A stretch of DNA of 6,469 bases from a virus (IMGVR_UViG_2648501150_000029); one strand, 5' to 3'. Positions 1,111 through 6,301 are shown, counted from the first letter of the stretch. The notes: a model not told the origin generated them from the letters alone. Translations and numbers: made by a program.

Positions 1111-1356
1111 GGTGTCATGGCTGTCACATTGCCTGATCGCATATTCGTTATGCTATAGTAGCGCCCCCAATTTACCAGATGCTTAAAAAGTCGCCATGCC
1201 AGCAGAATCACACACTGTTTATCCCGCTTACCGTTTCTCGATTGCCCCGATGCTTGATAGGATGTACCGTTTTTGAAAAACAACTAGTTATACACTTTGT
1301 GGGAGCCTATTGGGAACCTGTTATTCTTAGAAAGCATCATTTGCTCATCACTTCAA

Positions 1357-2500: not shown

Positions 2501-2539
2501 ACAACAGGAATTGTTTCGGTATAACTTCAGGAGTTTTCT

Positions 2540-2713
2540 ATGGAAGATCAAAAAGCAACCAAGCCACAGGTTAAGTTCGACACAATGAAAGCATTCGCAG
2601 GTATGGGTGCTGCTGTTGAAGTTCTGATGAAGGCTGCTCCTAATGCGTTCACTCACGCTACTGTCTCTGGTAAAGAGCAGCAGGGTAAGCTTCGTCGTCG
2701 CAAAGCAGCATGA
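2540..2713 (+). CDS. Small hypothetical protein, 57 aa (MEDQKATKPQVKFDTMKAFAGMGAAVEVLMKAAPNAFTHATVSGKEQQGKLRRRKAA)
   Basis: Not in the ORF track (under 60 aa). ATG at 2540 preceded by AGGAG (2529-2533) at 6 nt spacing; stop TGA 2711-2713; followed within 20 nt by an intrinsic terminator. Basic C-terminal tail. No family recognised. Confidence 0.45.
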   Translation: MEDQKATKPQVKFDTMKAFAGMGAAVEVLMKAAPNAFTHATVSGKEQQGKLRRRKAA

Positions 2714-2732
2714 TCATAGCTGGTGCTTTTTG

Positions 2733-2758
2733 AAAACCCGCCTTTAGGCGGGTTTTTT
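2733..2758. terminator. Bidirectional rho-independent terminator
   Basis: aaaaCCCGCC-ttta-GGCGGGtttttt: a 6-bp GC stem (2737-2742 / 2747-2752) flanked by an A-run and a T-run, so it ends in a U-tract on either strand. It lies between the plus-strand small gene (stop 2713) and the convergent minus-strand excisionase-like gene (stop 2761-2763). Confidence 0.7.
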
Positions 2759-2760
2759 AT

Positions 2761-3042
2761 TTAGTGATGTTCTTTGCCCTTCTGTTTGCTTGTTCTGACC
2801 TGTTCCCACTCGATACGTCCTTCTTCTCGTCTTTTGTCTATGTATTCCGCAAGATCCTGAATATTGATGCAACGTTTTGCTTTTTGTGATGTGCCGATGC
2901 GATATGTTGGAACGGGCAACTTACAAGCGTTTGCTTTTGCTTCTGCCGTGGCTGGACTCATGCCAAAGTACTTTTGGCTAACTGCTGAGAGTTCAATGTT
3001 AGGGGTATTGAATTCAGCCATCAGTAAAAACAAGGTGTTCAT
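2761..3042 (-). CDS. Excisionase-like / PrtN-family small DNA-binding regulator, 93 aa
   Basis: Best start is ATG at 3042-3040, preceded by GGAG at 6 nt spacing; the ORF-track start at 3069 is a GTG with no SD. Product MNTLFLLMAEFNTPNIELSAVSQKYFGMSPATAEAKANACKLPVPTYRIGTSQKAKRCINIQDLAEYIDKRRE... has the MNTLFLLMA N-terminus that I associate with PrtN/excisionase-like prophage proteins. It is the last gene of the prophage operon. Confidence 0.6.
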   Translation of the reverse strand: MNTLFLLMAEFNTPNIELSAVSQKYFGMSPATAEAKANACKLPVPTYRIGTSQKAKRCINIQDLAEYIDKRREEGRIEWEQVRTSKQKGKEHH

Positions 3043-3078
3043 AATTTTCTCCATCAAAACCGGCTGCACCCGGGAAAA

Positions 3079-3651
3079 TCATAATTCTGTGCTGGTGGCA
3101 GGAATTAATTTCTGCCAGATAGCGGAAACATATTTTGCCTGATGACGGGCATCAGCCAGGGCGTTGTGCCGTTCGCCATCGAAAGGCATGTCCATTTTGG
3201 GGTCGAATCCGATGGAACGCCCAAGCGTAACGATCGTGCGTACATCGTGGTCATTCCAGTATGCCCACGGGCAGATTTGTCCTGCTCGCTCATAAGCTCC
3301 ACGTAAAATTACGTTGTCGAAGGTGGCTCCGTTACCCCAGACTTTTAAATATTTCGTATTGTCTGCGTGCCGGTTAATGAAATGATTTAGTTCTGAGAGA
3401 GCATCGCTGATCGACAAAGTATCATCAATACAGATTGCAGCTCGTGCTTCAGGGCTTTGTTTCAACCACCACAGGATGGTATCGCCGTCAGGTGTAGCTC
3501 CTTGCCCCATAGCACTTTCCAGGCTAACAACCGTATAGAATTCTTGTCCGATGTCTCCGGTTTCTGGAGTGAAGAACACCGCGCCAATGGAAACGATCGG
3601 TGCATCCTTATTTTTCCCCATCGTCTCAAGGTCGATCATTAAGTTGTTCAT
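3079..3651 (-). CDS. DEDDh-family (DnaQ-like) 3'-5' exonuclease, prophage-encoded, 190 aa
   Basis: ATG at 3651-3649 with AGAGGTG SD 5 nt upstream; it overlaps the upstream stop (TGATG). N-terminal Exo I motif MIDLETMG (D-x-E) and C-terminal H-x-A-x-x-D-A (ERHNALADARH), diagnostic of DEDDh exonucleases. By position this is the full-length counterpart of the ypdJ exonuclease fragment I recall in K-12 CPS-53. Confidence 0.75.
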   Translation of the reverse strand: MNNLMIDLETMGKNKDAPIVSIGAVFFTPETGDIGQEFYTVVSLESAMGQGATPDGDTILWWLKQSPEARAAICIDDTLSISDALSELNHFINRHADNTKYLKVWGNGATFDNVILRGAYERAGQICPWAYWNDHDVRTIVTLGRSIGFDPKMDMPFDGERHNALADARHQAKYVSAIWQKLIPATSTEL

Positions 3652-4460
3652 CACTTCACCTCTTGTGATGGTTTTGCTGCAAAATACTCGATACCTTTAT
3701 CCCAGATAGATTTTATGGTCGACCACGTGACTGGCACTTTAATTTCAATACGTCCGCTCCCGTCACAGGTATCGCAATCATCATCGCCAAAGCATTCCAG
3801 GCAGCTTATAAACGTAGTTTCTGAAAATTCACCGGATAGCGCCCCCTTAGCGCCGTTCTCGGCTGTTAGTCTCTTCGGCACCATAACCCAACCATCCGGA
3901 GTTACCGGAGAGTTGCCAGACAGTGCGTTCTGCAATCGTTCCAGCTTAACGTATTCCTGAACCCTGTTTCCGTCGCACGCCTGAAGCCATTGCACAGCCT
4001 TTTGCGCATCAGTGTGAAAGGCACAAGTGCGACCGTCATCAAATTGCATTTCGTAGAGGTCAGCAACCTGTTTAAACTGCGTTTGTGGCAACTTGTAAGC
4101 CTGGCTTGCAGGTACGGCACCATAGAGCATGGCAGCGCGGCAGGCGTTCCAGCCTTCATCAAAACCGACTATGCCATTATTTAAAGACGGACGAGCATCT
4201 GGCACCACCGGCACTGGCTTGGCTATATATAGCGGCTGAACATACCAGCCCTTTGATAACCAACTGTCAGCAATGTTTTTACTCCTGGTTATTGCCGGAA
4301 TACCTAAGCCATTGTCTGAATGCAGCCATGCCACCGGATCCTCTTCCAGCGATGCCAGAGCAATTTCATAAGCACGGCGCTCAACATTGTCTCGCACGTC
4401 CATGCTGCTGATTCGTTCTTTGATTTCTTTAATCAGTTCTTTATCGGTAAATGTGGTCAT
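3651..4460 (-). CDS. Hypothetical prophage protein, 269 aa, with C-terminal CxxC / CxxCxGxG zinc-ribbon-like motif (in the YfdT position)
   Basis: ATG at 4460-4458 with GGAGG/GGAG upstream; overlaps the upstream stop (TAATG). C-terminus ...TTFISCLECFGDDDCDTCDGSGRIEIKV contains CLEC and CDTCDGSG (CxxCxGxG, the DnaJ-type zinc-finger signature). Stop TGA 3653-3651. Function unknown. Confidence 0.6.
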   Translation of the reverse strand: MTTFTDKELIKEIKERISSMDVRDNVERRAYEIALASLEEDPVAWLHSDNGLGIPAITRSKNIADSWLSKGWYVQPLYIAKPVPVVPDARPSLNNGIVGFDEGWNACRAAMLYGAVPASQAYKLPQTQFKQVADLYEMQFDDGRTCAFHTDAQKAVQWLQACDGNRVQEYVKLERLQNALSGNSPVTPDGWVMVPKRLTAENGAKGALSGEFSETTFISCLECFGDDDCDTCDGSGRIEIKVPVTWSTIKSIWDKGIEYFAAKPSQEVK

Positions 4461-4822
4461 TATGCTCCAGCCTCCGGTGCTTTTGGCATTACTGCCCAGT
4501 GAGTGATGTTGACGTTTTCAAGGTCCCCGACCTGAAATGTCCACTGCCATTCTCCGGTTTCTTTTTGCCCCCATGTATACCAGAGAGAACGCCAGCCAAT
4601 CAGCCAGCCTTCTCCATTAGCATCAAATAACAGAACACTTTCATTCGCTGGCGGCAGTTCAGCTGACACTGGTATTACTTTGTTTTCCAGTGCTGCACAT
4701 TTAGCTTCAAGCGCATCAAATTTACGCACCAGGTATTCAGCATCCGTTTCATTCACTTTCAGATCTCGCGGTACACATTTCCCGCGAAGAAATCCTTCCA
4801 TTTCGAAAACATTCATGCGCAT
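4460..4822 (-). CDS. yfdS: YfdS-like prophage protein, 120 aa
   Basis: ATG at 4822-4820 with GGAG 8 nt upstream; overlaps the yfdR stop by 10 nt. A second in-frame ATG at 4816 forms an ATGA overlap with that stop. Assignment rests on the yfdQ-yfdR-yfdS order and the matching 120-aa length recalled for K-12; no motif recognised. Confidence 0.6.
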   Translation of the reverse strand: MRMNVFEMEGFLRGKCVPRDLKVNETDAEYLVRKFDALEAKCAALENKVIPVSAELPPANESVLLFDANGEGWLIGWRSLWYTWGQKETGEWQWTFQVGDLENVNITHWAVMPKAPEAGA

Positions 4823-5349
4823 TTGCGTAACTCCGATAATTCGTTAAAGCGTTCCATAAACATCCCGTAGGCATGGCCTGGAGCCAGTGGAATCACGTTG
4901 AACATCTCTGTTGCCGGGATACCTTCCAGTACAGGCCAGAAAGAGCCATCATCAAGCCCGAGATCGCGGCGTTCGGTTGCCAGCATGATGAGATCGGCAT
5001 ATTTCACGGGCGTACTCATAACCGGTGGTAACCCGTATTTCTCACGGATTACGGCGTCTATTTTTTCTTCCATCCGTTTATAGTCAGGAAGAAGGCGTTT
5101 CAGTGGTGCGGGAATGTCCTGGCAATACGCTTCTGTTGCATCATGCATTAACGCTTCAAAAGCAAATTCCTGCGGCACCAGCTGGCTGCAAAGAACCGCA
5201 TGTTGGGCGACGCTGTAGAAGTGCGAAAGATGACCGGCAAAGCGACAGATATTTGAAAGGGAAACCGCGATATCGTTAATATCGATGTCGTCTTTATTTA
5301 TCCTGTCATAATAAAAATGCTTCCCAGAAAAAGTTTTGATAAATGACAT
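4813..5349 (-). CDS. yfdR: HD-domain phosphohydrolase (5'-deoxynucleotidase-like), YfdR, 178 aa
   Basis: Best start is ATG 5349-5347 (MSFIKTFSGKHFYYD...) with GGAG 6 nt upstream; the ORF-track start at 5376 is a GTG without SD. HD-domain signature visible: ...H-x-x-x-H... (GHLSHFYSVAQH) and ALMHDATEAY (the H-D dyad). The 178-aa length matches K-12 YfdR as recalled. Confidence 0.8.
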   Translation of the reverse strand: MSFIKTFSGKHFYYDRINKDDIDINDIAVSLSNICRFAGHLSHFYSVAQHAVLCSQLVPQEFAFEALMHDATEAYCQDIPAPLKRLLPDYKRMEEKIDAVIREKYGLPPVMSTPVKYADLIMLATERRDLGLDDGSFWPVLEGIPATEMFNVIPLAPGHAYGMFMERFNELSELRKCA

Positions 5350-5442
5350 TTTGTTCTCCACGTATATGCGCTGCACCGCGCTGAATTCTGGTAAAAAGAA
5401 TCCCTCACCATCCGGCGATTATTGAGTAAATTACGTTTCCAT

Positions 5443-5464
5443 AAATGCCCCCGCAGGGGCATTT
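5443..5464. other. Perfect 22-bp palindrome / stable hairpin between yfdQ and yfdR
   Basis: aaatgcccc-cgca-ggggcattt: a 9-bp perfect inverted repeat with a 4-nt loop. It lies 13 nt downstream of the yfdQ stop and about 85 nt upstream of the yfdR start on the minus-strand transcript. No clean U-tract follows on either strand, so it is not a canonical intrinsic terminator. Confidence 0.5.
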
Positions 5465-5476
5465 GCAGTAATGAAA

Positions 5477-6301
5477 TCAGGCGGTGAAAGTACCAATAAA
5501 GGTTTCTACTTTGCTGTCCTTGAATTTCTCAACAAGCAGATCACGAAATTCGTTAGCCATTTCTTCCTGCACCGCCTCCAGCTGAATAATGCGCAGAACC
5601 AGTACAGGACGATCGCCAGTGATAATGCTGAGGCGTAATTTAAACGGACGTTCTTTCAGACCTTCAAACGGAACGCATTTAAATTCAAATGCCACTGGCA
5701 TAATGTCTTTGGTCTTCGCTTCGACAGACTCCATCAGGGAGCGTTTGCCGCTGAAGTCATTGTCTTCAAAATCAGCGGTCTGGTTCGCTTCAATTGTGAT
5801 TTTACGGATCGCCGCAGCCGCTTTGGTTGCCTGAATGGCGTCACCATTAGCATCAAAGCCCACAAGGTAGTCTGCCCAGTCTTCAATCCATTCTGCCAGT
5901 GACTTCTGGGAGTTACGCTCGCCATTAACAGACAACAGAGCAGAGAACGGTGCTGTCTTTTTCAGTTTGAGAGTGGCGGTGTTATCTGCGTGACCTGGTT
6001 CATCAATAGTACCCAGGTTAAGCACACTGACGGCTCGCATATTATCGGCATCGATAAAGCAGCGGGTGCCTTCATCTGCAAGATCTTTAGAATAACGGGT
6101 AAAGTCATCGATGCTGGCAGTGGAAAGTGCACCACGGAAACGGAAACGATTTAAATTAAATTTTTCCAGATCATGAATGCGGAAATTCTCAGGCAATGCC
6201 ACAGCATCGGCACCAATCTTACTGATAATTTCATTAACACCCTGAGCAGAAATAAGGGCATGGATTTGATTAATTGCGGTTGAGTCTAAGTTCTGAGACA
6301 T
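5477..6301 (-). CDS. yfdQ: DUF2303-family prophage protein YfdQ, 274 aa
   Basis: ATG at 6301-6299 with GAGG 8 nt upstream; stop TGA 5479-5477. Product [70 protein letters not shown]... matches in length and N-terminus what I recall of E. coli CPS-53 YfdQ. Identity is from recall. Confidence 0.75.

Follow-up and report, generated by a model that had tools for sequence, protein, structure and literature searches.

The window, a 6,469-nucleotide stretch of viral DNA (IMGVR_UViG_2648501150_000029), carries a 190-aa open reading frame (ORF) at positions 3079..3651, which very probably encodes an active DEDDh exonuclease, as its family, its intact catalytic residues and its predicted fold all suggest. 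The explanation that we consider probable as a whole is that the product is a 3'-5' exonuclease of the Pfam family PF16473, encoded by an accessory gene of a prophage early operon and acting on the 3' ends of DNA.

Gene, family and fold of the exonuclease

The ORF lies on the minus strand (3651 to 3079), as read from the sequence, whereas the first-pass annotation had given no strand. Its product begins with MNNLMIDLETMG (MNNLMIDLET...) and ends with ATSTEL, followed by a TGA stop codon at 3081..3079, and its assignment is supported by Pfam, PHROG, an AF2 model, Foldseek and an identical RefSeq protein. The product matches PF16473 (Rv2179c-like 3'-5' exoribonuclease domain, a family in which T4 DexA is included) with E = 4e-75 over positions 1-177 of the 177-position profile, and the score of 251.8 bits, compared with a cut-off of 27, is far above chance. 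It also matches PHROG 255, which is described as 'exonuclease' (E = 1.8e-93). The general RNase_T model PF00929 (DnaQ/RNase T proper) stayed below its gathering score (20.9 vs 24 bits) and covered residues 5-46 only, and is, as judged from these profiles, a different family of the same superfamily. No NCBIfam model matches the exonuclease, and a literature search under the name PF16473 returned no papers.

All five catalytic residues of a DEDDh enzyme are present. The Exo I motif D7-L8-E9 (3625..3633, minus strand) supplies the metal-binding Asp and Glu, the Exo II Asp is D112 in WGNGATFD (3316..3318, minus strand), and the Exo III motif H162-N-A-L-A-D167 (3151..3168, minus strand; 3168..3148 when it is read through A168) supplies the general-base His and a further metal-binding Asp. 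In an alignment of 39 homologues, D7, E9, D112 and D167 are invariant and H162 is conserved in at least 90% of the sequences, and the five residues align with D7, E9, D119, H186 and D191 of DexA, respectively. This bears out the earlier description of a full-length DEDDh enzyme, assigned to the RNase T/DnaQ superfamily, in which Exo I and Exo III are intact, and adds the Exo II Asp to it. A profile search, which had been proposed as a check for membership of a non-catalytic family, placed the protein in the catalytic PF16473 and so favors a presumably active enzyme; those of its members that have been tested (Rv2179c, T4 DexA and E. coli EcD) all show 3'-5' exonuclease activity. Among relatives that are about 82% identical, pN was ~0.11 and pS was ~0.77 (with synonymous sites saturated), and the gene is under purifying selection.

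In the PDB, T4 DexA (exonuclease A; 8KEL/8KEN) was the sole match, whether the search used the single sequence (E = 8e-11) or the profile (E = 1.5e-15), and the structure of Rv2179c was detected by neither search. The AF2 model, which was built from 39 homologues (pLDDT 88.3, pTM 0.86), predicts a DnaQ/RNase T-like alpha/beta fold, and Foldseek again ranked DexA first (8kel/8ken, TM 0.74-0.78), followed by RNase T (TM about 0.70), Orn and REXO2, with a Foldseek probability of 1.00 for the DexA and RNase T matches. DexA, which also belongs to PF16473, is thus the best match by sequence as well as by fold, and S87, D90 and W152 of DexA align with the exonuclease in addition to the catalytic residues. 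The two proteins are only ~30% identical, however. DexA is longer (227 aa compared with 190 aa), has additional loops and helices, and belongs to a lytic phage whose DNA contains 5hmC, and its acidic residue D169 is not conserved in the exonuclease.

The prophage operon and the variable upstream neighbor

The window joins the E. coli chromosome, represented by yjbJ and zur at its left end, to one end of a prophage. In MS1679, the closest complete genome (99.4% identity), the prophage spans from the zur side to dusA, and the tyrosine integrase is located beside dusA at the far end, ~38 kb off; the positions belonging to this arrangement are 1241-1318 in the window and 13135-14232 in L192. A 78-bp stretch of the window (1241-1318) matches by blastn the region between int and gp23 of phage mEp460, suggesting that it is likely the attachment site between int and xis, which become separated in the prophage state.

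The leftward operon consists, in order, of the repressor region, yfdP, yfdQ (DUF2303), yfdR, a gene for a DUF551 protein, a gene for a 269-aa protein, the exonuclease gene and xis. The minus-strand stretch 4460-6301 encodes YfdQ (DUF2303, E = 6.5e-93), a YfdR-type HD 5'-deoxynucleotidase and the DUF551 protein, which is 120 aa in length. The only gene that follows the exonuclease on this strand encodes a PrtN-family excisionase (2761..3069, with the RefSeq start at 3042; PF11112, E = 4e-23; PHROG 1300 'excisionase'; also annotated in RefSeq), followed by a terminator, in agreement with the earlier placement of the exonuclease as the penultimate gene of the operon. The terminator is a strong, GC-rich hairpin between A and T runs (2732..2757; 11-bp stem with 6 GC pairs), which is likely bidirectional and, as judged from its sequence, likely ends both the leftward operon and a convergent small ORF. 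The latter is a conserved 57-aa ORF on the plus strand (2540-2713), equivalent to mEp460 gp24 and without a family, which converges on xis and has this terminator in common with it. Comparison with mEp460 and E. coli strain 104 by blastn delimited a conserved block, 2527-3673, that comprises the 57-aa ORF, xis and the exonuclease gene. The adjoining slot (1319-2526) holds different genes in mEp460 and strain 104. In the window, a 190-aa Panacea-domain protein (SocA-like antitoxin, PF13274, E = 2e-19) is encoded there on the plus strand with a 4-nt overlap with a gene for a 139-aa protein (1512-2500 together); the partner has no Pfam family and matches PHROG 19071, and the two look like a putative toxin-antitoxin pair of the PanA type that forms additional cargo of this prophage end. 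An Rfam scan of the window returned nothing, and no recognizable partner recombinase is encoded within the window.

The position of the exonuclease gene is equivalent to the exo-xis region of phage lambda, the genes of which are early and non-essential and influence the lysis-lysogeny balance (PMC10834534). By analogy with lambda, the gene, a presumably non-essential accessory placed directly before the excisionase gene, would be transcribed from an early-left promoter after induction or infection, as part of the early leftward operon of a prophage that resembles mEp460 and is integrated at dusA.

Upstream, the exonuclease gene overlaps the gene for the 269-aa protein (3651..4460, minus strand) by a genuine TGATG, in which TGA at 3653..3651 closes the 269-aa ORF and ATG at 3651..3649 opens the exonuclease, the minus strand across the start being CAAGAGGTGAAGTGATGAAC. 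As judged from PHROG (PHROG 60) and from neighborhood comparison, the 269-aa protein is a mosaic with a variable C-terminal module, and the proteins found at this position in related phages carry the annotations Ea22, EaA or DUF551. According to a previous study, proteins of the Ea22 family join a constant N-terminus and coiled coil to C-terminal domains that are portable and become swapped, DUF551 among them (PMC10834534). Here, the module contains a DnaJ-like, zinc-finger-like motif, CxxCxG-x3-CxxCxGxG (C220, C223, C229 and C232; 3753..3803, minus strand), which was recognized from the motif itself, is conserved in relatives, and is not recognized by any Pfam model.

The first-pass annotation had taken the overlap as a sign that the two proteins work together, and in its full form this idea holds that they are a functional pair in which the zinc finger targets the nuclease, with translational coupling as the signal. 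This could be examined in both directions, using the best 80 viral-contig loci with relatives of the exonuclease and, in reverse, the best 80 loci with the zinc-finger module. Among the 80 exonuclease loci, the ORF directly upstream takes 56 distinct forms of 42-378 aa, with C-terminal modules of at least three kinds, including the zinc finger (~18 of the 56 forms, found in E. coli as well as in further enterobacterial lineages), DUF551 (with WMPLPEPP at its end) and others. When only the 39 loci are considered whose exonuclease shares at least 96% identity with that of the window, the upstream ORF still occurs in 18 lengths (93-319 aa), whereas the junction GAGGTGAAGT[G/A]ATG is kept in all of them, in two as the variant GAGGTAAAGTGATG. 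Identity to the window collapses ~11 nt 5' of the exonuclease ATG in 30 of these 39 loci, and the block common to mEp460 and strain 104 ends at window position 3673. The translation-initiation junction (3649..3673), which contains the Shine-Dalgarno sequence GAGGTG, the upstream TGA and the overlapping ATG, is also the 5' mosaic boundary of the block 2527-3673, as indicated by the sequence, the comparison of loci and blastn. Across window positions 3652-3673, otherwise unrelated upstream proteins (loci L006-L044) end in ...QEVK*, with the mosaic boundary 11-22 nt 5' of the ATG; they have this tail in common because their last codons are the Shine-Dalgarno sequence of the exonuclease (GAGGTGAAGTGATG).

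A constant junction behind varied upstream ORFs implies that the overlap belongs to the ribosome-binding site of the exonuclease cassette itself, and translation would start from this Shine-Dalgarno sequence inside the last codons of whichever gene lies upstream. The overlap is real, but does not serve as a sign of co-function, since the same junction stands behind many unrelated proteins, DUF551-type ones included, and overlaps or gaps of at most 3 nt are normal in these operons with any neighbor. In the reverse sample, the zinc-finger module is followed by the exonuclease in 45 of the 80 loci, a frequency that speaks for some association, and lacks it in the other 35 (34 of them informative, as one locus ends 3 nt past the module), where, for instance, a small ASCH-like protein (recognized by eye) or other small ORFs come next. 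These two-way counts rule out an obligate pairing and indicate that the two genes are frequent neighbors in a mosaic region. An 823-aa fusion protein of Rac/Qin-like prophages, which has a CxxC...CxxC stretch ahead of its exonuclease domain, might be read in favor of a pair, but its N-terminal part has no similarity to the 269-aa protein, and a Rosetta-stone link between the two was rejected on this ground. Altogether, we regard a functional pair with a nuclease-targeting zinc finger as improbable.

The stable neighbor of the exonuclease is instead the downstream excisionase. An excisionase (recognizable or putative) or an Arm-binding integrase is the next downstream ORF in 79 of the 80 exonuclease loci (78 of 79 with downstream DNA). 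The excisionases found after the exonuclease are of several families, of which at least two, PrtN (PF11112) and DUF1233 (PF06806), are different Pfam families, and two more are of weak helix-turn-helix types.

Substrate and possible role

The enzyme is probably a dimeric, Mg2+-dependent 3'-5' exonuclease of PF16473, and its most likely substrate would be DNA 3' ends, as in T4 DexA. DNA rather than RNA is slightly favored from sequence comparison, because the DNase DexA is the only solved relative that can be detected by sequence, while the RNase Rv2179c was not detected. Points against the preferred explanation as a whole are the low identity to DexA noted above, the fact that Rv2179c, after which the family is named, is an RNA exonuclease, and the lack of a recognizable partner recombinase in the window. 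DexA has been described in DNA-end trimming and nucleotide scavenging (PMC12153337), and the place of the gene in the early-left operon suggests that it would be expressed after induction or infection and would have a comparable function. Single-stranded or frayed DNA ends may be cut to mononucleotides, for nucleotide scavenging or end processing in lytic growth; such a role in the DNA metabolism of the lytic cycle is put forward tentatively, with somewhat less than even expectation. The neighboring YfdR-type 5'-deoxynucleotidase could speculatively take up the mononucleotide products, and the presence of a nucleotidase and an exonuclease in one operon may hint at a shared role in nucleotide salvage.

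Rv2179c of M. tuberculosis is the founding member of PF16473 and a DEDDh 3'-5' exonuclease, and the exonuclease matches the family profile over its full length. It differs from the exonuclease in being a chromosomal RNA exonuclease, a divergent orthologue of RNase T, while the exonuclease is a prophage gene. By this likeness, the exonuclease could be an RNA 3'-5' exonuclease that trims the RNA 3' ends of phage or host transcripts, as Rv2179c and RNase T do, or that blocks RNA phages. RNase T, Orn and REXO2 match the predicted fold strongly, and a recent preprint (2026) has reported ISG20-like nucleases of prophages, called TONDOs, which are DEDDh enzymes that defend against MS2 and Q-beta, one of them requiring an adjacent auxiliary ORF (PMC13344964). 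However, TONDOs were found with ISG20 as the query and typically have an auxiliary domain, and the catalytic Asp of their mutated members lies at positions 91-191, implying an N-terminal extension that is absent from the exonuclease (PMC13344964). DexA, and not the structure of Rv2179c, can be reached from the exonuclease by sequence or profile search, and we consider an RNA-directed role of this kind unlikely.

A role in defense is suggested by another member of the family. Kang et al. (2025) reported that EcD, a DexA homologue, digests the 5hmC DNA of T4, leaves unmodified DNA intact, and makes E. coli cells resistant to T4 (PMC12153337). Similarly, the exonuclease might be a prophage defense nuclease of the 'HREX' type, which would degrade incoming 5hmC phage DNA, spare host DNA, and shield the lysogen from T-even phages. 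The EcD sequence, which we reconstructed from the primers given in the same paper (189 aa, MIDTET..., with A78), also belongs to PF16473, is 37% identical to the exonuclease (E = 3e-38), is of similar length, and has the same catalytic residues; the equivalent of DexA W152 is kept in the exonuclease as W132. EcD was found in five viral contigs (L186 at 5679-6248, together with L168, L173, L183 and L189), where it is flanked by the gene for a DUF4761 protein on one side and a Dam-type methyltransferase gene on the other, and where a Cox-like gene and an integrase lie close by. As this locus belongs to the early operon of a P2-like element, the published 'bacterial' EcD is prophage-encoded and is not a core host gene, and in this respect it resembles the exonuclease, although EcD is beside a Dam methyltransferase and the exonuclease of the window is beside xis.

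The residues associated with tetramer formation point the other way. The defense variant is marked by loss of the equivalent of DexA D90, which mediates tetramer formation together with S87 (PMC12153337), and the exonuclease retains both (S80 and D83), whereas EcD has A78 in place of the D90 equivalent. At the position of DexA D169, near which EcD has an acidic residue, the exonuclease has R145 and S146, neither of them acidic, although the alignment there crosses an indel; as aligned, the exonuclease is the opposite of EcD on both counts. Residue arguments of this kind are weak at 30-37% identity. In addition, a lysogen would be expected to keep the operon repressed, and a consensus scan for an internal promoter that would allow expression there gave 10 sites, compared with 10 expected by chance. 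PADLOC matched the exonuclease to a generic DEDDh model only (E = 2.3e-5), and found no partner gene among the seven neighbors scanned. Defense against 5hmC phages by this gene is therefore, in our view, as unlikely as an RNA-directed role.

A broader anti-phage interpretation would take the exonuclease and the excisionase as a cassette that moves as a unit, with the nuclease as an anti-phage effector similar to EcD/HREX or to TONDOs, and the upstream Ea22-like C-terminal module (zinc finger, DUF551 or others) as an interchangeable helper or specificity factor. We give this little credence; if it were true, the pattern of variable neighbors would reflect diversifying selection and not independence.

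The first-pass annotation had also mentioned counter-defense by relatives that degrade signaling nucleotides or host nucleic acids. On this view, the exonuclease would destroy immune signaling nucleotides or the nucleic acids of defense systems, for example cyclic oligonucleotides or the msDNA of retrons. Orn and other DEDDh enzymes break down short linear oligonucleotides, and the CBASS-associated exonuclease Cap18 is found among the Foldseek matches, as a distant one at rank 44. The known phage enzymes that degrade cyclic nucleotides have other folds, for instance Acb1 (2H phosphoesterase) and Apyc1 (metallo-beta-lactamase). The searches that were run linked PF16473 to no such role, no CBASS-like or similar genes lie near the exonuclease, and its neighborhood gives no defense or counter-defense signal, so that this interpretation appears highly improbable. 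Membership in a known defense system (Cas-associated DEDDh nucleases or CBASS Cap18) was likewise rejected, as there was no specific PADLOC profile match and no partner gene.

Known copies, relatives and naming

The exonuclease is already known, annotated and ordinary, and its family has been defined and structurally characterized. The RefSeq protein WP_001061348.1 ('3'-5' exonuclease', E. coli strain 104) is identical to the product of the window, and gp26 of phage mEp460 ('exonuclease', YP_007112100.1) differs from it in one residue, D97A. In all three the gene stands directly before that of a PrtN-type excisionase, and the two prophage copies, those of the window and strain 104, occupy the same prophage end beside zur. 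The three differ in the upstream neighbor, which is a DUF551-type protein in strain 104 and mEp460 and the 269-aa zinc-finger-type protein in the window, and in the cargo at the prophage end, where the Panacea-domain pair of the window is replaced by other genes in strain 104 and mEp460.

Of 5426 complete E. coli genomes, 4215 (~78%) contain homologues at the DNA level, at a median of two and a maximum of eight sites per genome. Relatives were found by tblastn in 1238 phage records, and a protein search returned 2821 clusters, which, where named, are 3'-5' exonucleases or exoribonucleases. In MS1679 (L001, 23079-23651), the exonuclease gene is a pseudogene with a one-base nonsense change, G51*, while the copy in the window is intact, and truncated variants of the exonuclease also exist in databases; both fit a dispensable accessory gene.

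A longer relative, the 823-aa '3'-5' exonuclease' WP_000048437.1 of Rac/Qin-like E. coli prophages, is 61% identical to the exonuclease of the window over its C-terminal 180 aa and is likewise encoded directly upstream of excision genes (xis-int). Unlike the exonuclease, it carries a 640-aa N-terminal region that is unrelated to anything in the window. In a Rac/Qin-like prophage at ompW (L004, 3074-5545), the CxxC...CxxC stretch of this protein precedes the exonuclease domain. Two other longer proteins, P0009 and P0050, were considered as natural fusions and rejected, as they appear to be products of frameshift or deletion.

The 823-aa protein is often mislabelled as exodeoxyribonuclease VIII, and the same label is attached to the gene studied here in several phage records. 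RecE is a 5'-3' enzyme with a different fold. Identity with RecE was rejected, as Pfam gives only PF16473 and the sub-threshold PF00929 for the exonuclease, both of them DEDDh 3'-5' families, and by these profile matches the label is a mis-annotation. The correction of this wrong 'exodeoxyribonuclease VIII' label is a modest gain from the present analysis.
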